The notes beneath the pieces were generated by a model. The model ran no database searches. It was not told the origin of the DNA and was given only the letters and a program-made list of their open reading frames with translations. Shown one piece after another: positions 17,206-26,924 of a stretch of 64,000 nt of DNA (position 1 is the first letter of the stretch; each line of letters starts with the position of its first letter). The position numbers and the translations under genes were made by a program. Origin of the DNA: Desulfatiglandales bacterium (lineage in GTDB: Bacteria > Desulfobacterota > DSM-4660 > Desulfatiglandales > Desulfatiglandaceae); NCBI GenBank assembly GCA_963662465.1, contig OY759599.1, positions 384,001 through 448,000 of the forward strand. The letters are read 5' to 3'.

Positions 17206-17360
17206 AAAGCGCTCATAAATCAATACCGCAAAAACGATTGAAAATCCCCGGTGCGACTTGGCGCCCTTCTTCAATTGATCCTATGCTTGCATTGCGAGTG
17301 TTGAGAGCAGATGACTGGTGGGATGATTCCGGACTCAAAGGAATCAGAAGTTGTTGGCAG
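17171..17360 (+). pseudogene. C-terminal remnant of an ISKra4/ISLre2-like transposase
   Basis: KGYPIGSGEIESAHK..QKRLKIPGATW...MLALR. Confidence 0.7.
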
Positions 17361-17869
17361 CCTAACTCTCCAACAGCCGTGATTTACACCCAATCCGTTT
17401 ATTCCCGCCTTATTCTCACTCTCGCCCCTTCTGCAGCTTTAAACCCATTCTTTCAGAGGTTCACGATCTCAAGAATGCAATTGATATCATATGGGAAGTT
17501 TTCAAAACGGACAAGAGAGTCCGACGTTTGATTGTATGAAGAATGCTGTAACCAAAACAGGGGGGTGATTTATCATGGATGGGCTGAATGTGAAGCGAAT
17601 TAATAAACAGGGATAAATTTCCATTGACAAGAAATACGCAGGCAAGAAGGTTTAAATCGACCAATATCCCGATGGTACCGTTGTTTTGACGCCCATTGAG
17701 TTTATCAGTGAATTTGAAATCAATCTTCTCAAGTTCCGATCATTTCAGGACCGCCTGAAGGCTTTCGACCGATGGGAAGCAGTTCATGATGCCTCAGAAG
17801 CCAAGCTTGCTGATCTGGAGAGACATTTTGAGGATTGACCTAATCTTTCCCGGTTTTCAAAAAGATTTC

Positions 17870-18026
17870 GGTTCATCGCGGATTAACGTGAAATTTGGTT
17901 TGACTGGATTTTGGCCCGTGCTGTAGGTGCGAATTCAGTCGTACAGAGCAGATGCCCTTTGTGCGACTAAAGTTGCACCTACAATCGTTCCAAAAGTTAG
18001 GGCTTCACGGCAATCCGCGAAGAGGC
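17870..18026 (+). mobile_element. REP-carrying MITE (copy 1)
   Basis: End GGTTCATCGCGGATTAACGTGAAA identical to 55757; inner inverted REP pair; flanks aagatttc/aagatgac (6/8). Confidence 0.7.
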
Positions 18027-18402
18027 AAGATGACCCATAGCGGTTTAACGTGAACCGTGGATTGAAACCCTTCGATGAATTTCACCATATTTTCATCAAA
18101 ATAAATGCTCCTACAAAAAAACCTATTGACTTTTTCATTTTTTCGGAATAGCGAATGATTGAATTGAGTCAGCGCTATGATTTTGCGATTAACGTGAAAC
18201 TTGTTTCTGATGATGGTTTCACGGGGCCTGTAGGTGCGGCTTCAGCCGCACAGCATTGCTTTTTTAGGTTGTTCTTTTTGCGAAGTGTTCCGATTGTGTT
18301 GTACTCCGATTGTAGGTGCGACTTTAGTCGCACATTTCATTACGTTTTGCAATGCTTTCAAAAGGTTTTGGGGTCGGGTGATTTAATGAGGAGGGAAGGG
18401 CG

Positions 18403-19479
18403 GTGAAAAAAGAGATGAATCGGTTTTTAACGATTTGGGCGATTGGTTTGGCCGTGGTTTGCCTGTCTTTTGGAGCCCATGGGCGTGCGGCGGAAAAAGA
18501 CTGTAATGTGTTCATCAGTTGCGGGAATCCCTACGACTGCTGCAACAATGGAACCCAGGAACAGGACGGCAACTGCACCTGGTGGGCGTGGAAGATGATG
18601 TATGACCGGTGGGGGTATCGGGCGCCCACCTGGCACAATGCCGGTCAAGTATGGTTGGATGGCGCGCAACAGGCTGGGTTGCCCACGGGTGATGGAAATT
18701 CTCCCAGAGTCGGGTCCGTTTTTGTCCAATCCGGGCATGTGGGGTGGGTTTTCAAGGTGGACGGGAATACCATCTACACCACTCAAATGAACTGCGGATA
18801 TCCGGACCAGTACACTAGCGAACAGAACGATTACAAAACCTATGACATTACTACGCAAACGTTCCTGGGTTTCATCTATCCGCCGGACGGCTCCGGGCCG
18901 GTGCCGGATACGGGTGTGACAAAATGTTATGACACGGCCGGAAACGTCATCATCTGTCCGGATTCCGGTGAGGACTATTACGGCCAGGACGGCAATTACA
19001 CCATCAACCCGCCGTCCTATACCAAGCTGGATTCGCAGGGTTATGTTCTATCGGTTGCCGCCACATCCTGGGCCATGGTTCTAGACAATGTCACCGGGCT
19101 GTACTGGGAGGCGAAACAGAACAAGGACGGTGCCTCACATTACGATAATCCCCATGATGCCGACAATACCTATAACTGGTACGACGCGCAGAATATCTTC
19201 ATCAAGGCCCTAAACGACGCCAATTTCGGCGGCCATTGCGACTGGCGTTTGCCCACCAACAAGGAGCTGGCTTTTCTGGTGGATTACAGCATCGCGTATC
19301 CGGGGCCGACCATCAACATGACCTATTTTGCGAATACGGTGTCGTCCTATTACTGGTCGTCTACTACCTATGCCAATACTCCGGACGACGCCTGGCTCGT
19401 CGATTTCTACGATGGCTACCGCCTCTGGTACTGTAAGTCCTACAGCGATTACGTTCGGGCGGTTCGCGGCGGACAGTGA
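18403..19479 (+). CDS. DGR target 1: signal peptide + CHAP domain + DUF1566 (Lcl/CLec-type) domain with C-terminal VR
   Basis: GNCTWWAW...GHVGWV (CHAP Cys/His); PDTG..CYD, DNVTGLYWE, DWRLPT..EL, YWSST, VRAVRGG; VR matches TR. Confidence 0.9.
   Translation: MKKEMNRFLTIWAIGLAVVCLSFGAHGRAAEKDCNVFISCGNPYDCCNNGTQEQDGNCTWWAWKMMYDRWGYRAPTWHNAGQVWLDGAQQAGLPTGDGNSPRVGSVFVQSGHVGWVFKVDGNTIYTTQMNCGYPDQYTSEQNDYKTYDITTQTFLGFIYPPDGSGPVPDTGVTKCYDTAGNVIICPDSGEDYYGQDGNYTINPPSYTKLDSQGYVLSVAATSWAMVLDNVTGLYWEAKQNKDGASHYDNPHDADNTYNWYDAQNIFIKALNDANFGGHCDWRLPTNKELAFLVDYSIAYPGPTINMTYFANTVSSYYWSSTTYANTPDDAWLVDFYDGYRLWYCKSYSDYVRAVRGGQ
19338..19473 (+). repeat. DGR variable repeat VR1
   Basis: 136-bp ungapped match to TR; 21 mismatches, 20 at TR adenines. 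Confidence 0.97.
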
Positions 19480-19526
19480 TCGATTATTCGGTAATTTGAT
19501 GCTTTGTTCATTTGGAGCTGAAAATC

Positions 19527-19925
19527 TTGGCAAGGTATGAACATCTACCCCTATACAAAGCGGCCATGGACATGGGAGTCTATCTCGAAGGTATGGTCCA
19601 TAACTTCAGCCGGTATCACAAATATACCACCGGTCAGGAACTGCGTAGCCTGGCCCGCGAAATCATCAAGCTTATCATCTGGGCCAATTCGGTCCGGGAT
19701 AGGAGCGACATCCTGTCGGAACTGGTGATCCAGTGCGAAATGCTCAAGACCATGCTCTTTTTTGCCAAGGAAACCAAGGCGATTCAGAGCTTCAAGGCAT
19801 TTTAGCACGCCTCCGGTCTGGCGGTGTTGCTTTGCAGACAGAGCGAGGGCTGGCTTAAAAGCAGTCGAAAGGGCCCGAATCGCCCACCCCCGGATGGGAA
19901 AGGGGGGCCGGCGAGTGCGCCATGA
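19527..19925 (+). pseudogene. avd: Avd-like four-helix-bundle accessory protein interrupted by an in-frame TAG (19803-19805)
   Basis: MARYEHLPLYK...FSRYHKYTTGQELR; frame continues after TAG as HASGLAVLLCRQSEGWLKS; lies between target and TR. Confidence 0.8.
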
Positions 19926-20243
19926 ACACTGTGCGCCTCCCCCGCCTGGCGGTTCATGCAGGCATATTCATGCAGGGCGTGGAGGGATCCGCGCCCGGTG
20001 GAAGGAAATTCATTGCGGCCTGCACAGCTGTGGGTGCGACTGTAGGTGCGACTTCAGTCGCACAGCAACGTCGTGCGCCAATACCGGGTATGGCTTGTGC
20101 GAATAAATTCGCACCTACAGTGCAACCGTCCCGACGGCGGATGTTTTGACCCCGGGATGGGTTGTGCGGCTGAAGCCGCACCTACAGCACAGTGCCACAG
20201 CACAGCGCTATTGTGGGTTTCCTTCATCAAGTGGGGAGGTGAT

Positions 20244-20379
20244 GGTGTCGTCCAATTACTGGTCGTCTACTACCAATGCCAATAATCCGAACAACGCCTG
20301 GAACGTCAATTTCAACAATGGCAACGACAACTGGAACAATAAGTCCAACAACAATTACGTTCGGGCGGTTCGCGGCGGA
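20244..20379 (+). ncRNA. DGR template repeat (TR)
   Basis: AAC/AAT-rich invariant copy of both VRs (17 AAY codons), between avd and RT. Confidence 0.97.
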
Positions 20380-22009
20380 AAGTGTTCCCCTGCTGTCCTT
20401 CCGGTCAATTTATGATGCGTATCTGGATTGCCGAAGGAGAAAGCGCAATACCATCAACGCGCTCAGGTTTGAGGCCGATTTGTTGACCAACCTCTTTGAC
20501 CTGGCGCTGGACCTGCAAAAGGGACGGTATCAGCCCTCCCGCTCTGTCTGCTTTGTCACACGGTCCCCGAAGCTCCGCGAGGTATTCGCCGCGGACTTCA
20601 GGGACCGGATCGTTCATCATCTGGTGGTGCGGGAACTGGAGAAGATATGGGAACCGCGCTTTATTTATGATTCTTATGCGTCCAGAAAAGGGAAAGGCAT
20701 CCACTCGGCCGTGGACCGGCTTCAGGGATTCATGCGGAAGGTGACCCGCAACGGCAAGCGGGCCGGCTTTTTTCTGCAACTGGACATTCGGTCTTTCTTC
20801 ATGAGTATAGACAAACGCATTTTGTTTTCCCTGTTTGACCGGGACCGGAAAACATCGGATGTGCTGCGGTGGGTTTTGTCGGTACTCATTTTTCATGATC
20901 CCACGACGAATTATTGTTTCAAGGGAAACGGGAGATTGCTGGACGCCATTCCGCCCCATAAAACTCTTTTCAAGACCGGCCTGTACAAAGGGCTCCCTAT
21001 CGGAAATCTGACGAGCCAGTTTTTCGCCAACGTCTATCTCAATGAACTGGATCAGTTTGTCAAACATGAGCTGAAGTGCCGGTTCTATTTGAGGTATGTG
21101 GATGATTTTATCCTATTGGCGGAGAGTGAAGATCAACTGTTGAAATGGCGTCAGGCGCTGAGCGGGTTTCTGGAAGACCACCTGGCGCTACGTCTGAGAG
21201 GCGGTGACCGGGTGCGCCGGGTTTCTGACGGTGCGGATTTTCTGGGGTATGTGACCCGCCCCGGGTACCGTCTGGTGCGAAAACGCGTGGTGAACAATTT
21301 TAAATATGTGCTGGCGCGAACGCGGGACAAAATGGTGGTGGAGATGGCGGGTGACGCAGCGGCCGTCGGTGCGGCAGGACGTGCGGTTGCCGGTGCGACT
21401 GTAGGTGCGACTTCAGTCGCACAACCGGAAAAGAAAATCACCCGCGTCACCGGCGCCCCCGCAGGTGCGAATTCATTCGCACAGCCCACCAGGGTTGCGG
21501 TCCCGGGCATCCGCACACTCACGATCCGTCCCCGAATGGTCCTGCATTTGCGGCAGGTCCTGGCCTCTTACCTGGGCCATTTTCAGCATGCGGACAGCCG
21601 GTATCTGGTTGAGAGTATTTTCACAAAACACACCTGGCTCAGGCAGTTGTTTGTGTTTGACCGGGGTAAACTGAAGATGAAAGCCCTTCCCGTTCAAACC
21701 TTTCCATGCATGCGGGAGCAGGTGTGGTTTTTTAGAAGGCATTATCCCGGATTCATACTTTTGTTCCGGGTGGGCCGCTATGTGGAGCTTTACGGAAAAG
21801 ATGCTCGGATTTTGCGGGAATATGCCCATTTGAAGCTAGTGAAACAGCATCGGGGCCTGCGGGATTCGGTGGGGTTTCCGGTGAGCATGACCCGGGGCAT
21901 ACGCCGAAAGCTTTTAATGAGGGGTCACCGAACGGCGCTGGTGGCCCAGGGCGTCACCGGCGGGCGGGTGAGACGCCGGTATGTGGCAGAGCTGGCGTTT
22001 GCGACCTGA
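20276..22009 (+). CDS. DGR reverse transcriptase with C-terminal MutS-I-like domain (start uncertain; ORF overlaps TR)
   Basis: FRDRIVHH, LDIRSFF, GLPIGNLTSQFFAN (DGR-type SQ), RYVDDF, DFLGY; tail ILLFRVGRYVELYGKDA...VGFP. Confidence 0.95.
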   Translation: MPIIRTTPGTSISTMATTTGTISPTTITFGRFAAESVPLLSFRSIYDAYLDCRRRKRNTINALRFEADLLTNLFDLALDLQKGRYQPSRSVCFVTRSPKLREVFAADFRDRIVHHLVVRELEKIWEPRFIYDSYASRKGKGIHSAVDRLQGFMRKVTRNGKRAGFFLQLDIRSFFMSIDKRILFSLFDRDRKTSDVLRWVLSVLIFHDPTTNYCFKGNGRLLDAIPPHKTLFKTGLYKGLPIGNLTSQFFANVYLNELDQFVKHELKCRFYLRYVDDFILLAESEDQLLKWRQALSGFLEDHLALRLRGGDRVRRVSDGADFLGYVTRPGYRLVRKRVVNNFKYVLARTRDKMVVEMAGDAAAVGAAGRAVAGATVGATSVAQPEKKITRVTGAPAGANSFAQPTRVAVPGIRTLTIRPRMVLHLRQVLASYLGHFQHADSRYLVESIFTKHTWLRQLFVFDRGKLKMKALPVQTFPCMREQVWFFRRHYPGFILLFRVGRYVELYGKDARILREYAHLKLVKQHRGLRDSVGFPVSMTRGIRRKLLMRGHRTALVAQGVTGGRVRRRYVAELAFAT

Positions 22010-22016
22010 TCGAGTA

Positions 22017-23270
22017 TAGGTGCGGCTTGTAGGTGCGACTTCAGTCGCACAACAAATCCCTCGTTGTGCGACTAAAGTCGCACCTACAGTGGTGGTCTAG
22101 ATGGAGGTGATGGGAAAAATTGAAATGGGATTTACGGGTTGGGTTTTGATGACCAGTGGTCTCAAGAGATTGTGTTGTTGCGGGGTGGTATGGCGGATTG
22201 CTGTGCGACTGAAGTCGCACCTACAGCAGGACAAGGCTGGAGGGAATGAGGATGGAGTGTTGTGCGACTAAAGTCGCACCTACAGTTAGGAGCGTCCAAA
22301 TGCGGGGGATGCATCGATGAAGGGAAGGGGTGCTCCATTATATCCGCCAGGCTATGGGGCGTTGCGGGCAGGCCGGTGGAGCGAATCGGGGCGGTGTTAC
22401 ATGATTACCACGGTTACCGCCGACCGTGCGCCGGTTTTTCGCGATCTGTTTGCCGGTCGTTGCGTTGTTCGGGAGATGATGCGGTTGCACGGTGATGGAG
22501 TGGTGGCATCTCTGGCCTGGGTGATCATGCCTGATCACTTTCACTGGCTGGCGGTGCCGGCGAGTCCATGGAGCCTTTCAAAAGTCATTCAATTGCTGAA
22601 GGGGAGATCCGCGAGACGTGTGAATGAATATCTGGGTCGTACGGGCAGCCTCTGGCAGCCGGCGTTTTATGATTACGCGGTTCGGAAGGACGAAGATCTT
22701 CGCAAAATGGCCCGATATATCGTGGGTAATCCGATCAGAGCGGGTTTTGTGAAGCGGGTTGAGGAATACCCCCTGTGGGATGCGGTGTGGTTGTGATCGG
22801 TGTGTATGGCTCGATCCGATGTGTGGCCGGTTCACGATTGTAGGTGCGGCTTGTAGGTGCGACTTCAGTCGCACAACAAATCCTCACTGTGGGACTGAAG
22901 TCGCACTTACAGGAGGACAAGGCCGGAGGGAATGAGGATGGGGTGTTGTGCGACTAAATTTTCACCTACAGTCGTATTCCAAATGAAGGTGACGGGAAAG
23001 ATTGAAATGGGATTTACGGGTTGGGTTCTGATGGTCGGTGGTCTCAAGAGATCGTGTCGTTGCGGGGTGGTAAGGACGATTGTAGGTGCGGCTTCAGCCG
23101 CACATTTGGGCTGCGGATGATGGATGTACGGCGGGTGTTGTGCAACTAAATTTGCACCTACAGTGTTGTGCGACTAAAGTCGCACCTACAGTCGTATTCC
23201 AAATGAAGGTGACGGCAATGGGGGGTTGTGGGCAGGCGGATTATTGTGCGACTAAAGTCGCACCTACAGC
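22017..23270. repeat. REP/REPIN field around RAYT
   Basis: More than 10 copies of TGTAGGTGCGACT(TC/TT)AGTCGCACA or variants in both orientations, with longer duplicated spacers; more copies at 17922-18334, 20041-20186, 21400-21483, 26821-26871, 55810-55869. Confidence 0.9.
22317..22796 (+). CDS. REP-associated tyrosine transposase (RAYT)
   Basis: YMITTVT, VIMPDHFHW, LWQ..FYD..VR, YIVGNP.RAG; flanked by GTAG-type REPs. Confidence 0.92.
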   Translation: MKGRGAPLYPPGYGALRAGRWSESGRCYMITTVTADRAPVFRDLFAGRCVVREMMRLHGDGVVASLAWVIMPDHFHWLAVPASPWSLSKVIQLLKGRSARRVNEYLGRTGSLWQPAFYDYAVRKDEDLRKMARYIVGNPIRAGFVKRVEEYPLWDAVWL

Positions 23271-23513
23271 ACGGAAGCATCTCTTTTGTTGCGAAAAGCA
23301 TGGGCAAAGGATGTGACTATCAGAAGCACCGGTCCATGGCAAAGAGGGGTCGGAAGAGCGTCATTTCATTTTAGCGACGGGCATAAATATTTGGCGGCCG
23401 CATTGAAGGGCGCGGGGAAAATGGATCAGGAAGAGGCAGGCGTGATACGGATGCCTCTTTTGTCGGTACGGTTCCATTTACCCGTGTCTGTGCTGCCGTA
23501 GAAGGAGGAAGGC

Positions 23514-26500
23514 ATGAAAGCAATGCGATGGGCAACAGCCGTCATGGCCCTGTGGGTCGTAATCACGATCACGCAAACGGCGTACGCGGCCTTTGTGGAC
23601 AATGGCAACGGCACGGTGTCCGATACGCGAAGCGGCCTCATGTGGCAGCAGGATACGGCCAGGGATGCTGGGGGAAACTATGATACCATGACCTGGAAGG
23701 AGGCCTTGGCCCACTGTGCCAATCTGGAGCTGCCGCCAGGCGGCTATACCGACTGGCGCCTGCCCACCATCAAGGAGATTCGATCCCTGGTGGATTGCAG
23801 TCAGTATAGTCCCGCCATTAATCGCAATGCCTTTCCCGATACGGTGTCGTCCAATTACTGGTCGTCTACTACCTATGCCAGTAGTCCGAACTACGCCTGG
23901 AGCGTCTATTTCTACAGTGGCGGCGACTACTGGGGCAATAAGTCCTACTACGGTTGCGTTCGGGCGGTTCGCGGCGGACAGTCTGGGGCATTCGGTTCTT
24001 TGGATCATTTGGTCATTTCGGTGCCGGCGGGCGCCCAGTCGGTTGGGGATGATTTTACCATCACCGTCACCGCCGAGGATGCGGCAGGGCTGCAGGTGCT
24101 GGATTTTGCGGGTAGCGTGAACCTTTCGGCCGAGGGGAATACCGTTGACCCCACCGCAGTGACCCTCTCCGGCGGGCATGGGAGCGCGTCCATTCGCATC
24201 TTGAACGTCGGCAAAACCCGGCTCAACTGCGACGGTTATGGGGCCTACGGCAACAGCCGGTATTTTGACGTGGCCGGGGAGAATCCCTGCATCGGGTCCA
24301 TCGAGGGGAGCGTGGTGGACTGCCGGGGCACCCGCGTGAGCCAGGCCACGGTGCGGGCCCGTGACGTGGAAGGGGACGTGATGGCGAGCACCACCACGGA
24401 CGGTAACGGAAGGTTTACGCTGGCAGACTTGACCTGCGGGCCGTATGATATCGAGGTTGAAAAATCCGGCAAAACCGCCACCGGCATCTGGAAGACGGTG
24501 GGCGGACATTACTGCACCACGGCCTTCGGGATCGAGCTGCCTTTGAACTGCGGAACTGAACAAGCGGTGGTGGTATTGGTCCCCGGCATCATGGGGTCCA
24601 GCGAATCGTCATGGGGGGGGGTTCCCAGCTTGCCGGCCGGTGCACCGGCACGCGCTTCGGATTTGCACATTCATGCCGAGGGGACAACCGGTTTTAAAAA
24701 ACTCAAAGAAGAACTGGAAGCGGCAAATTTTACCGTGGTGGAGTGTCCCTGGGACTGGCGGCTCAATTGTGAGCGGGCCTACCGGGAATACCTGAAGGAC
24801 AAAATAGACGAAGCCCTGGCGGATTCAGGCGCCGACAAGGTGTATGTGGTGGCCCACAGCATGGGGGGGCTTATGGTACGGGCCTACATTCAGAACAAGG
24901 AGAATTATCGGAACGACATCGCCAAAGTGGCCTTTGTGGGCACCCCGCATCAGGGGTCCTGCAATCCCTATTACATCTGGGAGGGGGGCGATCCCCTGGC
25001 GGTCGACGATATGGTCGGTCCGGCACTGGACTTTTATACGCGGACCACCGAGAAATTGTGGGGGAATTACAAGAGAGGCTGGAACACTGAAAACCACGAT
25101 GAGATCCGTTCGTTTATCAGAAGCGACGTGCAGTCCCTGCTGCAACTGATGTATGCGGAAAAATTCCTGACGGATATGCGTTCTTACTGGGCCGTGGAAA
25201 CCCCCGGCAATACCAACGACTGGCTGGACGACTTAAACGAAGGCGATGGGAATTACAACAAGCCGTACGATGTCATGAGCAAGGACGGTTCAAGCGGCAA
25301 CAAGGTGGAGGCCCGGTGCTTTGTGGGAGATTCGGCTGCTTCCACCATTCGGTGGGTCAAGATGGCCCGCACGAGAGGCAGTTCCGGGGCTACCGATGAC
25401 CGGTATGAGGACGGTATTCCACGAAATGAACGGCCTCAGAAAGATAACGTTTTATGGGGAAGCGGCGACAATACGGTTCCCTATGACAGCGCCGTTTATC
25501 CTTACACGAAGGGCTGGGCCCAATTGTGCGCGAAAAAATCCCAAAAAAAACACAGTGAACTGGTGAAGGATTTTGCGACGGACATCGTGCTTTTTTTGGA
25601 CCCCGATGCAGTGGTTTCCTCAAATGCCGCCACAAGGGATGACCCGACTCCGCCCGAACTGTCGGTTTCCATCACCGGCGGGATGCGCGTCCAGATCATA
25701 GATCCCGAGAACCGCAAAACCGGCGCCGACCCGGCCACGGGCCTGCCGGTGCAAAATATCCCCGATTCTATGTGCGCCTTTGATGTGGGAGGCGGCGGCG
25801 CGGCGGTGCAAAGCCCCGCGGCCGGGGCCTACCGGATCACTTATTTTGGCCAGGCGGACCGGGATTTCCAGATCTCGCTAGACTACCAGGATGACACCCT
25901 GACGGAGACCTACAGCTTTCAGGGGTTTCGGCCGGCAGACGCACAGACCTTTACCGTGAGTCTCAACCCCGCAGCCTCTCCCCGTCTCACCATCACCCCG
26001 TCCTGCAAGGCTCCCACCAATCTGGAGGCCAACCCCTACACGTCCGGCGAAACCCCGAAAACCCGCCTTTCCTGGTCCGCAACGGACGAAGCCGGCCTTT
26101 CCGGCTACAATGTCTATGGGGTGGCCCAACTGTCTCCCTATTTCTCCAAAGTGGCCACCGTGGCATCGAATGTCACCACTTATGATACATCAGACACCTG
26201 GAGTTCCGATGCCGCCACCACTGTCATGACCTATGCGGTGACGGCGGTGAAAACCGACGGCACGGAAAGCTTTTTTTCCAATACGGCCCAGAACGATGAC
26301 CGGGACCATGACGGCGTGACCGACGCACGGGAAGCAACAGACGGCACCAACCCGGACAACCCGGATTCGGACGCGGATGGCCTGAATGACGGGAAAGAAT
26401 CGGCATACGGTACCAACCCCCTGGTGAAGGACACGGACGGGGATACCTGGAATGACGGCGATGAAGTATCCGCCGGCACCGATCTCCTGGATCCTTATTC

Positions 26501-26789
26501 CATACCCCGAAGCGTGGGGTATGTGGACCCGGCCGGTGGCTGCAACGGCAACACCCCGTGCTACACAACCATACAGGCGGCCGTGGAAGGCGCCAAAAAC
26601 GGGGGCGTTGTTGAGATTAAGCAGGGAACCTATAGCGAAGAAGTGACGCTCGGGGCTGACAAGCAGGTGATGCTTCAGGGGAATTGGAACGATTCATTTA
26701 ACACCCAGAGCGGCATAACGACGCTGACGCACGCACCCAAAGCGCCCCTGGGGCGATTGACGCTGCGGGATCTGCTGGTGAAACCGTGA
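23514..26789 (+). CDS. DGR target 2: secreted multidomain protein (N-terminal DUF1566 with VR, Ig/CarboxypepD-like, LCAT-like alpha/beta hydrolase, FN3, Ca-binding Asp repeats)
   Basis: Signal peptide; DNGNGTVSD..SGLMWQ, WRLPT, YWSST, VRAVRGG; VLVPGIMGS, WDWRL, AHSMGG, GTPHQGS, GDNTVP; DSDADGLNDG repeats. Confidence 0.9.
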   Translation: MKAMRWATAVMALWVVITITQTAYAAFVDNGNGTVSDTRSGLMWQQDTARDAGGNYDTMTWKEALAHCANLELPPGGYTDWRLPTIKEIRSLVDCSQYSPAINRNAFPDTVSSNYWSSTTYASSPNYAWSVYFYSGGDYWGNKSYYGCVRAVRGGQSGAFGSLDHLVISVPAGAQSVGDDFTITVTAEDAAGLQVLDFAGSVNLSAEGNTVDPTAVTLSGGHGSASIRILNVGKTRLNCDGYGAYGNSRYFDVAGENPCIGSIEGSVVDCRGTRVSQATVRARDVEGDVMASTTTDGNGRFTLADLTCGPYDIEVEKSGKTATGIWKTVGGHYCTTAFGIELPLNCGTEQAVVVLVPGIMGSSESSWGGVPSLPAGAPARASDLHIHAEGTTGFKKLKEELEAANFTVVECPWDWRLNCERAYREYLKDKIDEALADSGADKVYVVAHSMGGLMVRAYIQNKENYRNDIAKVAFVGTPHQGSCNPYYIWEGGDPLAVDDMVGPALDFYTRTTEKLWGNYKRGWNTENHDEIRSFIRSDVQSLLQLMYAEKFLTDMRSYWAVETPGNTNDWLDDLNEGDGNYNKPYDVMSKDGSSGNKVEARCFVGDSAASTIRWVKMARTRGSSGATDDRYEDGIPRNERPQKDNVLWGSGDNTVPYDSAVYPYTKGWAQLCAKKSQKKHSELVKDFATDIVLFLDPDAVVSSNAATRDDPTPPELSVSITGGMRVQIIDPENRKTGADPATGLPVQNIPDSMCAFDVGGGGAAVQSPAAGAYRITYFGQADRDFQISLDYQDDTLTETYSFQGFRPADAQTFTVSLNPAASPRLTITPSCKAPTNLEANPYTSGETPKTRLSWSATDEAGLSGYNVYGVAQLSPYFSKVATVASNVTTYDTSDTWSSDAATTVMTYAVTAVKTDGTESFFSNTAQNDDRDHDGVTDAREATDGTNPDNPDSDADGLNDGKESAYGTNPLVKDTDGDTWNDGDEVSAGTDLLDPYSIPRSVGYVDPAGGCNGNTPCYTTIQAAVEGAKNGGVVEIKQGTYSEEVTLGADKQVMLQGNWNDSFNTQSGITTLTHAPKAPLGRLTLRDLLVKP
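23843..23978 (+). repeat. DGR variable repeat VR2 (internal, codons ~111-155)
   Basis: 136-bp ungapped match to TR; 18 mismatches, all at TR adenines. Confidence 0.97.
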
Positions 26790-26820
26790 GGGGCACATGG
26801 AGACGGGAGCTGGTTGCGGA

Positions 26821-26924
26821 TGTAGGTGCGTCTTCAGCCGCACAGCTTGTGCGACTAAAGTCGCACCTACAGCCCGGGCTGAAACATATTCAAAGCGCGG
26901 TTTCACGTTAATCCGCGATGAACC
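26821..26924 (-). mobile_element. REP-carrying MITE (partial copy, inverted)
   Basis: Reverse complement matches 55757-55833 including the terminal 24-mer. Confidence 0.7.

Follow-up and report, generated by a model that had tools for sequence, protein, structure and literature searches.

RESULTS

A DGR target gene joins a predicted CHAP domain to a lectin-fold domain

The window analyzed here, a stretch of 64,000 nucleotides from the Desulfatiglandales bacterium assembly GCA_963662465.1 (contig OY759599.1, positions 384,001 to 448,000), carries a diversity-generating retroelement (DGR) whose first target gene, at window positions 18403..19479 (stop codon included), encodes a 358-amino-acid fusion of an N-terminal CHAP module and a C-terminal Lcl_C (DUF1566) domain. 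Target gene 1 starts with GTG, 8 nucleotides downstream of a Shine-Dalgarno-like GGAGG read in the sequence (18390..18394), and, like all features of this gene and of the DGR given below with window coordinates, it lies on the forward strand. An earlier note, written from the letters alone, had described this open reading frame (ORF) as a CHAP amidase fused to a hypervariable C-type-lectin-like domain behind a signal peptide, and all of the elements that it claimed were found at the coordinates it gave. The N terminus (MKKEMNRFLTIWAIGLAVVCLSFGAHGRAAE) consists of a basic n-region followed by a hydrophobic core, and the first ~29 residues (MKKEMNRFLTIWAIGLAVVCLSFGAHGRA; aa 1-29, 18403..18489) resemble a Sec signal peptide without a lipobox; in the AlphaFold model, residues 2-23 form one helix. 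The signal-peptide-like start is thus present, and export of the fusion protein is predicted from sequence.

The CHAP module spans aa 30-159 (18490..18879), as delimited by Pfam, Foldseek, VIA-align, a profile match to PDB entry 2k3a and the alignment with a paralogue from the same genome; it begins with a Cys-rich lead-in (CNVFISCGNPYDCC) and ends at FLGFIY, where the similarity to the paralogue stops. The earlier note had proposed a profile search for CHAP (PF05257) as a check and had made its reading depend on whether the N-terminal domain models as CHAP. The profile search gave 37.1 bits (cut-off, 26; E 4.6e-9) over aa 55-130. In the whole-protein AlphaFold model, built on 46 aligned sequences, the predicted local distance difference test (pLDDT) score is ~90 across aa 60-130, and the C-terminal half is poor, with values of 26-49 per 10-residue block from residue 191. 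When this model was compared with the PDB, Foldseek returned four matches at an E value of ≤0.001, three of which are the CHAP-domain entries 9eum (the best, the phi812 hub CHAP; E 8.2e-5), 4cgk (PcsB) and 9euf; the fourth, 2lrj, is titled "staphyloxanthin biosynthesis protein" and aligns to the CHAP profile at E 1.5e-22. By VIA-align, the model superimposes on the Staphylococcus saprophyticus CHAP domain 2k3a with a Z score of 11.2 (root mean square deviation, 2.4 Å over 103 residues) and on PcsB with a Z score of 11.1, followed by glutathionylspermidine (Gsp) amidase at ~10 (9.5-10.1 for glutathionylspermidine/trypanothione amidases, with 12-15% identity for Gsp amidase) and NlpC/P60 proteins at ~7. 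A single-sequence search of the PDB with the CHAP part had only one weak match (8ej5, E 0.086), and a profile of the subfamily (29 members) matched 2k3a at E 7.2e-25 and also matched the phi812 hub and PcsB. On the strength of the model, the N-terminal domain is a CHAP fold.

The relatives of this module also have the makeup of wall hydrolases. We analyzed the 120 closest CHAP relatives, a subset of 150 from which the other 30 were mostly the lowest ranked. All but one of these 120 are CHAP proteins by Pfam, and their partner domains are mostly wall- or sugar-binding: ricin-type lectin domains (6 and 2), GBS_Bsp-like (5), choline-binding (2), SLH (1) and Lectin_C (1). The last of these is a canonical Lectin_C domain (PF00059, E 1.5e-22), an independent pairing of CHAP with a C-type lectin.

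Catalytic residues of the CHAP module

To place the catalytic residues, we used a phmmer alignment of the CHAP domain with its relatives, which has 154 rows, among them the query itself and, for some proteins, a second domain. The three motifs of interest are GNCTWW at aa 56, GHVGWV at aa 111 (both as described earlier) and TQMN at aa 127. The position of the catalytic nucleophile, Cys58 (codon at 18574..18576), is Cys in 153 of the 154 rows, and that of the catalytic His, His112 (18736..18738), is His in 146. The third position is less uniform and reads Glu in 119 rows, Gln in 3 (query included), another residue in 19 and a gap in 13. Here it is occupied by Gln128 (codon CAA, 18784..18786). 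Two residues further on, the fusion protein keeps Asn130, a position that is Asn in 73 of the 154 rows. In a profile-to-PDB alignment, the "sEmN" of the subfamily aligns with VSEMN of 2k3a and ISEHN of the phi812 CHAP, so that both alignments confirm the earlier observation that TQMN stands in place of the usual SEMN-type Glu. Contigs of sequencing runs X1 and X3 span the Gln128 codon without a difference, although they possibly stem from sequencing of the same organism and are not independent.

How much the substitution matters can be gauged from CHAPK, the CHAP domain of LysK, for which C54A and H117A are reported to abolish lysis and E134A to reduce it strongly without abolishing it; its authors describe the Glu as less conserved than the Cys and His (PMC4126393). 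Since E134A reduces lysis in CHAPK without abolishing it, Gln128 may, by analogy, weaken catalysis, and it is not proof of inactivity.

The variable region and its retroelement

The Lcl_C/DUF1566 lectin-fold domain covers aa 225-355 (19075..19467; PF07603, 109.2 bits against a cut-off of 34.9). Modeled separately (aa 165-358, 50 sequences), the C-terminal half reached a pLDDT of 86.5, and its best structural match was the C-terminal domain of Legionella Lcl (8q4e; E 3.1e-5; template-modeling score of 0.62 on the target), with C-type lectin-like domains next at weak E values (3.9e-2 and above). The claim that the DUF1566 domain ends in a variable region (VR) also held up: the last 47 codons, together with part of the stop codon, constitute VR1 (19338..19478), which is one of three copies of a 141-nucleotide repeat in the window. 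The other two are the template repeat (TR; 20244..20384), which has 17 AAY codons in the frame of the VR, and VR2 (23843..23983), which lies within target gene 2.

The differences between the copies are adenine specific. VR1 departs from the TR at 23 positions of the scored span, of which 21 are TR adenines, one is a G>C (at TR 20326, in codon 340) and one is a T at the 5' edge; of the 20 mismatches between VR2 and the TR, 19 fall on adenines and 1 is again a T at the 5' edge. As a consequence of the VR1 changes, 16 of the 17 AAY codons of the TR encode a residue other than Asn in VR1. The diversity that the TR could encode was computed to have an upper bound of ~10^24.

The remaining DGR components follow target gene 1 in the usual DGR order of target, avd, TR and reverse transcriptase (RT). 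Between VR1 and the TR is a gene for a bAvd-like accessory protein of 97 aa (19512..19805), and the RT ORF (20276..22009; RVT_1, 59.6 bits), whose start is uncertain and which overlaps the TR, has the motifs YVDD and SQFFAN and a C-terminal MutS_I-like domain. Target gene 2 (23514..26789; 1091 aa) encodes an N-terminal Lcl_C domain followed by an LCAT/alpha-beta-hydrolase lipase-like domain. Searching the whole genome with the TR located a remote third variable copy, VR3, 188 kb away (G000:C1:591994-592133), with 23 of 25 mismatches to the TR at adenines. It lies at the end of target gene 3, which encodes a 203-aa Lcl_C protein (G000:C1:591521-592132; locus L005:3521-4132), and the 3' flanks of VR1 and VR3 are similar over ~60 nucleotides, past the stop codon of the 203-aa protein. 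Within the genome, the TR search found resemblance to this TR only at the VR-like places that it listed.

Read evidence for VR1 came from Logan contigs, which drop rare variants. X1 contigs span 18307-18920 and a 437-nucleotide contig of X3, another sample, covers 19070-19477, both without a difference. The unitigs end within VR1, which fits a repeat that it has in common with the TR, VR2 and VR3. The RNA runs X4 and X5 hold 0.08 and 0.05 of the words, respectively. As contigs of the two samples share VR1, any present-day diversification is putative.

Assembly of the fusion and its relatives

The two halves of the fusion protein have very different distributions. The C-terminal 54%, from the conserved lead-in PVPDTGVTKCYD onward, is a very common module, with 2261 matching proteins at an E value of ≤0.001, and among the best 120 of these 2261, all but two cover this half only. 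In ordinary relatives (P0002, P0003 and P0019), the lead-in directly follows the signal peptide, whereas in the fusion protein it follows the CHAP module after a PPDGSG linker; linker and lead-in together occupy 18880..19074, as judged from the relatives' alignments. The CHAP part, in turn, is 51% identical over 167 residues to the N terminus of a 799-aa protein of the same genome (P0123; locus L001:718-3117, reverse strand), a multidomain paralogue with two CHAP domains and Glu at the third catalytic position. Judged from these sequences, the gene looks like a standard DGR target into which a CHAP module was inserted between the signal peptide and the mature start.

A further C-terminal module recurs among these proteins. 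The C-terminal ~75 residues of P0123 (...CGSKKPCYKQISTAI...GGWNSDF...) are 39% identical (E 3e-12) to the C terminus of the 1091-aa product of target gene 2 (window 26520-26744) and recur at the end of P0003; this module may be a sorting or anchoring domain common to secreted proteins of the lineage.

The fusion recurs in a metagenomic orthologue, P0271 (378 aa as called; from a 5.7-kb contig), which is 62% identical over 358 aligned residues. It shares its junction (FLGFIYPPDGSGPVP) and its YVRAVRGGQ ending with the fusion protein, but the third catalytic position is Glu. Its differences from the fusion protein fall mainly at TR-templated positions. A further sequence, P0004, is cut at a contig end, and its 90% cluster includes the full-length P0271. 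By sequence comparison, the CHAP + Lcl_C fusion is thus kept in the metagenomic orthologue. Two details of this cluster deserve mention. Both P0004 and P0271 start with a translated repeat copy (VRLKAHLQ), which suggests that the repetitive extragenic palindromic (REP)-like repeat found upstream of the CHAP gene lies upstream there as well. Another member of the P0271 cluster, P0272 (203 aa; encoded on a 13-kb contig), stops once the linker is complete (...PGSGGEQML) and is either a frameshifted or truncated allele without the lectin half or the result of misassembly within the repeat.

We then assessed how widespread the fusion is; these searches all started from this CHAP subfamily and do not amount to a census of all CHAP + DUF1566 proteins. 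A word-indexed search with the CHAP part returned 4 proteins, query included, and a full HMMER scan of 1.84 billion representatives returned 435 at an E value of ≤0.001, of which 3 reached ≤1e-30. A hidden Markov model (HMM) of Lcl_C, built from the C-terminal-module matches, was run on 152 CHAP sequences, namely, the best 150 of the 435 HMMER matches (P0001 and P0004 included) plus P0121 and P0122 from the word-indexed search, and matched only P0001, the fusion protein itself, and P0004. At an E value of ≤1e-8, the CHAP subfamily had no match in 200 further genomes of the order, a set in which 10 belong to the same genus and many are incomplete. In species-representative genomes, the CHAP core had no match: 27 loci cover only query residues 111-187, which run from the last part of the CHAP module through the linker into the lead-in and leave out the Cys/His core. 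A scan of metagenome contigs gave one distant locus (36% identity). In the ESM Atlas, no cluster had the CHAP + Lcl_C architecture; the matching clusters carried Lcl_C alone and scored at most 0.79. The 50,697 phage records had no tblastn match at an E value of ≤1e-5. Within these sequence collections, the CHAP + Lcl_C fusion is rare.

Genomic surroundings

The neighboring genes that we examined are IS21-type, transposase-like, RAYT, AbiEii and helicase genes, and none is a structural phage gene. Upstream, the small ORFs within 17238-18406 have no family match, and the bAvd-like gene is on the downstream side. In agreement with the earlier note, no immunity gene is therefore recognizable by family search of the small ORFs in this interval, a search that would miss one of an unrecognizable family or at an unlinked locus, and among the neighbor genes examined, no dedicated secretion gene is recognizable either. 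A promoter and terminator scan gave counts no higher than in shuffled sequences, and the DNA fold of 19455-19545, where a hairpin after VR1 was looked for, was not better than shuffles (z -0.48).

The cassette is rich in REP-like palindromic repeats (GTAGGTGCGACTTCAGTCGCACA and its complement, with 14 and 12 copies in 9 kb). Copies lie at window positions 18225-18337, 20025-20192, 21384-21486, 22011-22290, 22835-23274 and 26804-26877, some of them preceding the CHAP gene and others separating avd from the TR. A RAYT gene for an IS200-like Y1 transposase (22317-22796), ringed by these repeats, sits between the RT gene and target gene 2. The copies at 21384-21486 are inside the RT ORF and are read in frame (AAAVGAAGRAVAGATVGATSVAQP...), contributing ~50 extra residues between the RT and its MutS_I-like tail compared with the paralogous RT of a second DGR.

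This second DGR (G000:C1:3597233-3606172; loci L006 and L037) has an RT that is 55% identical, carries a MutS_I-like tail and lacks the N-terminal part; a DDE transposase gene separates it from its bAvd-like gene. This DGR has two targets: one is a 190-aa Lcl_C protein, and the other, of 1504 aa, has Lcl_C at its N terminus and then CarboxypepD_reg and CARDB. The absence of an enzyme domain from the 1504-aa target rules out that all DGR targets of this genome are enzymes. Altogether, Lcl_C has 38 matches in the genome, and several of these stand in tandem within frames of 1143-1457 aa near 6.76-6.78 Mb.

DISCUSSION

A putative wall hydrolase with a proposed re-aimable attachment point

By analogy with known modular hydrolases, we propose, with a probability of about 0.5, that the fusion protein is a secreted peptidoglycan amidase or endopeptidase whose attachment point can be re-aimed by the retroelement. 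A secreted modular wall hydrolase is likely because the partners of the CHAP relatives are mostly wall- or sugar-binding modules. In the proposed mechanism, the TR RNA would be copied by the RT with errors at adenines, and the resulting cDNA would replace VR1. On the lectin's ligand-binding face, as many as 17 Asn-templated positions would thereby be recoded, with the CHAP module and the lectin scaffold left unchanged. The exported protein would then bind a surface ligand, probably a glycan, set by the current VR1, and the tethered CHAP domain would cut stem-peptide or amide bonds of the nearby wall. Since the same TR also serves a lipase-like protein, an outward-directed degradative role seems most likely; the enzyme would be used, together with the product of target 2, against other cells or debris, in antagonism or foraging.

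Several observations weigh against this proposal. The producer is most likely a diderm, judged by the source names of the C-terminal relatives (Desulfatirhabdium, Desulfobacteraceae and Thermodesulfobacteriota), and a wall hydrolase exported by Sec in a diderm would meet the producer's own wall first. Yet neither an immunity gene nor a dedicated secretion gene is recognizable among the nearby genes examined. In addition, a free enzyme needs a way across the outer membrane to reach the wall of a diderm target. On the catalytic side, Glu occupies the third position in 119 of the 141 rows that bear a residue there, including both closest relatives, and the sequence of this CHAP copy suggests that Gln128 may weaken it. 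As for the retroelement, VR1 is identical in contigs from two samples, and the bAvd-like gene scores below the curated cut-offs of both Pfam (bAvd, 33.3 bits against 40) and NCBIfam (DivGenRetAVD, 32.4 against 80).

We also considered four other explanations. The CHAP copy might be crippled (Glu128 to Gln), in which case the protein would be a diversified adhesin or binder only, or its gene would be decaying; its CHAP fold could then do no more than hold on to a piece of the wall, leaving it uncut. Gln is found at the third position in only 3 of 154 rows, the query being one of them, whereas Glu stands there in the two relatives closest to it, P0004/P0271 and the paralogue P0123. We nevertheless regard a crippled enzyme as unlikely, given that Cys58, His112 and Asn130 are all kept and the frame is open across 358 codons. 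Moreover, the carbonyl oxygen of Gln could still orient the His, like Asn in papain. The CHAPK data cut both ways, E134A having strongly reduced activity without inactivating the enzyme, at a position that its authors describe as less conserved than the Cys and His (PMC4126393). Alternatively, an active enzyme might be directed at the producer itself, serving wall remodeling, cell separation or sheath or biofilm turnover, with the lectin as an anchor to its own or kin surfaces. Autolysins are numerous among secreted CHAP proteins, and one of the closest structural matches is PcsB (Z 11.1); the Sec route of a diderm leads to the producer's own periplasm, and the 38 Lcl_C matches in the genome point to a general surface theme. 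However, it is hard to see why a housekeeping autolysin would require a hypervariable face for binding, the absence of the CHAP subfamily (E ≤ 1e-8) from 200 other genomes of the order argues against a conserved housekeeping role, and a lipase-like protein served by the same TR fits outward-directed degradation better, so that we consider self-directed activity improbable too.

The substrate itself might also be something other than peptidoglycan, such as a small-molecule amide, a lipoprotein or a surface protein, to which the lectin would deliver the enzyme. The CHAP fold includes Gsp/trypanothione amidases (Z 9.5-10.1) and does not fix the substrate. Yet the solved structures nearest to it by sequence are wall hydrolases or CHAP proteins secreted by staphylococci (2k3a at E 7.2e-25, the phi812 hub and PcsB), identity to Gsp amidase is just 12-15%, and the partner domains of the subfamily are wall- or sugar-binding, which leaves this explanation a slim chance. 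By far the least probable, in our view, is a phage or prophage endolysin or tail-associated lysin with a binding domain diversified by a phage DGR. DGRs were first found in phages, whose lysins and tail hubs often contain CHAP domains (9eum and 8ej5). The earlier note had proposed an endolysin/bacteriocin-like layout with a diversified binding module, and the layout stands, in that CHAP is joined to a VR-bearing Lcl_C domain. Its endolysin part does not: the N terminus resembles a signal peptide, the closest CHAP relative within this genome is the 799-aa multidomain protein, none of the 50,697 phage records matched by tblastn at an E value of ≤1e-5, and the neighbors examined (IS21-type, transposase-like, RAYT, AbiEii and helicase genes) include no structural phage gene. 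The gene is chromosomal, lies within a DGR cassette among insertion sequence (IS)-type genes and is most likely not an endolysin gene. The target of the same TR 188 kb away also counts against a phage lysin, because, apart from a single exception, the DGRs for which Wu et al. report remote targets have no phage association (PMC5758913).

Comparison with known systems

The closest class of known systems is that of the DUF1566/CLec2 DGR targets (category "d" of Wu et al. 2018, NAR, PMC5758913), with Legionella LdtA as the type example. The system described here resembles this class in its C-terminal VR-bearing Lcl_C domain ending in ...YVRAVRGGQ, in the adenine-specific TR/VR differences, and in an avd-TR-RT cassette with several targets, one of them remote; multiple and remote targets as well as DUF1566/CLec2 targets were already described there, as were three RTs with a MutS_I tail like the one found here (PMC5758913). 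It departs from the class in the appended domain, which is CHAP here and is an adhesion or surface motif (Big_2, Big_3, FimA-like or BF2867_like_N) in the members described; protease-related or kinase domains are assigned only to other classes in the portions of that paper available to us, which do not mention CHAP or wall hydrolases (PMC5758913). Furthermore, LdtA is a lipoprotein, whereas the fusion protein has no lipobox in its sequence.

With the modular CHAP hydrolases (2k3a, PcsB, LysK CHAPK and the phi812 hub), the fusion protein shares the CHAP fold, the Cys-His pair, the xEMN strand (TQMN here) and the joining of a catalytic module to a separate binding module. In contrast to them, its binding module is a DGR-diversified lectin fold and not an SH3b, LysM, choline-binding or ricin-type domain, its third catalytic residue is Gln, its producer is probably a diderm of the Desulfobacterota, and its module opens with a Cys-rich lead-in (C..CGNPYDCC) common to its subfamily. 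Bacteriocins of the lysostaphin, zoocin A and pesticin type are secreted wall hydrolases in which a separate targeting domain picks the cells that are hit, but their targeting domain is fixed and comes with a gene for immunity or resistance. The fusion protein differs in that its putative targeting domain is hypervariable and no immunity gene is recognizable in 17238-18406. We consider "bacteriocin-like" a reasonable functional analogy for this putative activity. Within the window, target gene 2 offers a parallel: it is served by the same TR, its lectin head is of the same kind, and its payload is likewise an enzyme domain. In that protein, however, the lectin head is N-terminal, the VR is internal, and an alpha/beta hydrolase takes the place of the cysteine peptidase.

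In a term search of the accessible text of six DGR papers (PMC5758913, PMC8144416, PMC11661182, PMC6642488, PMC7159879 and PMC10907252), no CHAP, amidase or peptidoglycan hydrolase target was named, while protease-related, kinase and alpha/beta-hydrolase-fold domains were mentioned among targets. CHAP, PF05257 and DUF1566 were absent from the searched supplementary files of PMC8144416 (files 9 and 12 being outside the search), and no title or abstract on a CHAP DGR target was found in literature listings. The parts are known, and their combination, CHAP with a DGR lectin, is not described in the DGR literature searched.

Implications

DGR targets are usually read as binders, such as phage tail fibers, adhesins or sensors. 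In the locus described here, the diversified lectin is tethered to a predicted wall-cutting module and, in target 2, to a lipase-like module. It is therefore tempting to speculate, tentatively, that one TR rewrites the lectin heads of a wall hydrolase, a lipase and a bare lectin, and thereby maintains a re-aimable repertoire of offensive or foraging enzymes. With the same reserve, such a repertoire might be viewed as an enzyme-armed counterpart of an antibody repertoire, a natural programmable lysin in a free-living bacterium of the sulfate-reducer type. The hypothesis is tractable, as it concerns a small single protein with one catalytic Cys and one defined variable face. If the enzyme is active, targeted hypermutation would redirect catalysis and not binding alone, and the protein would offer a natural scaffold for lysins with selectable specificity.

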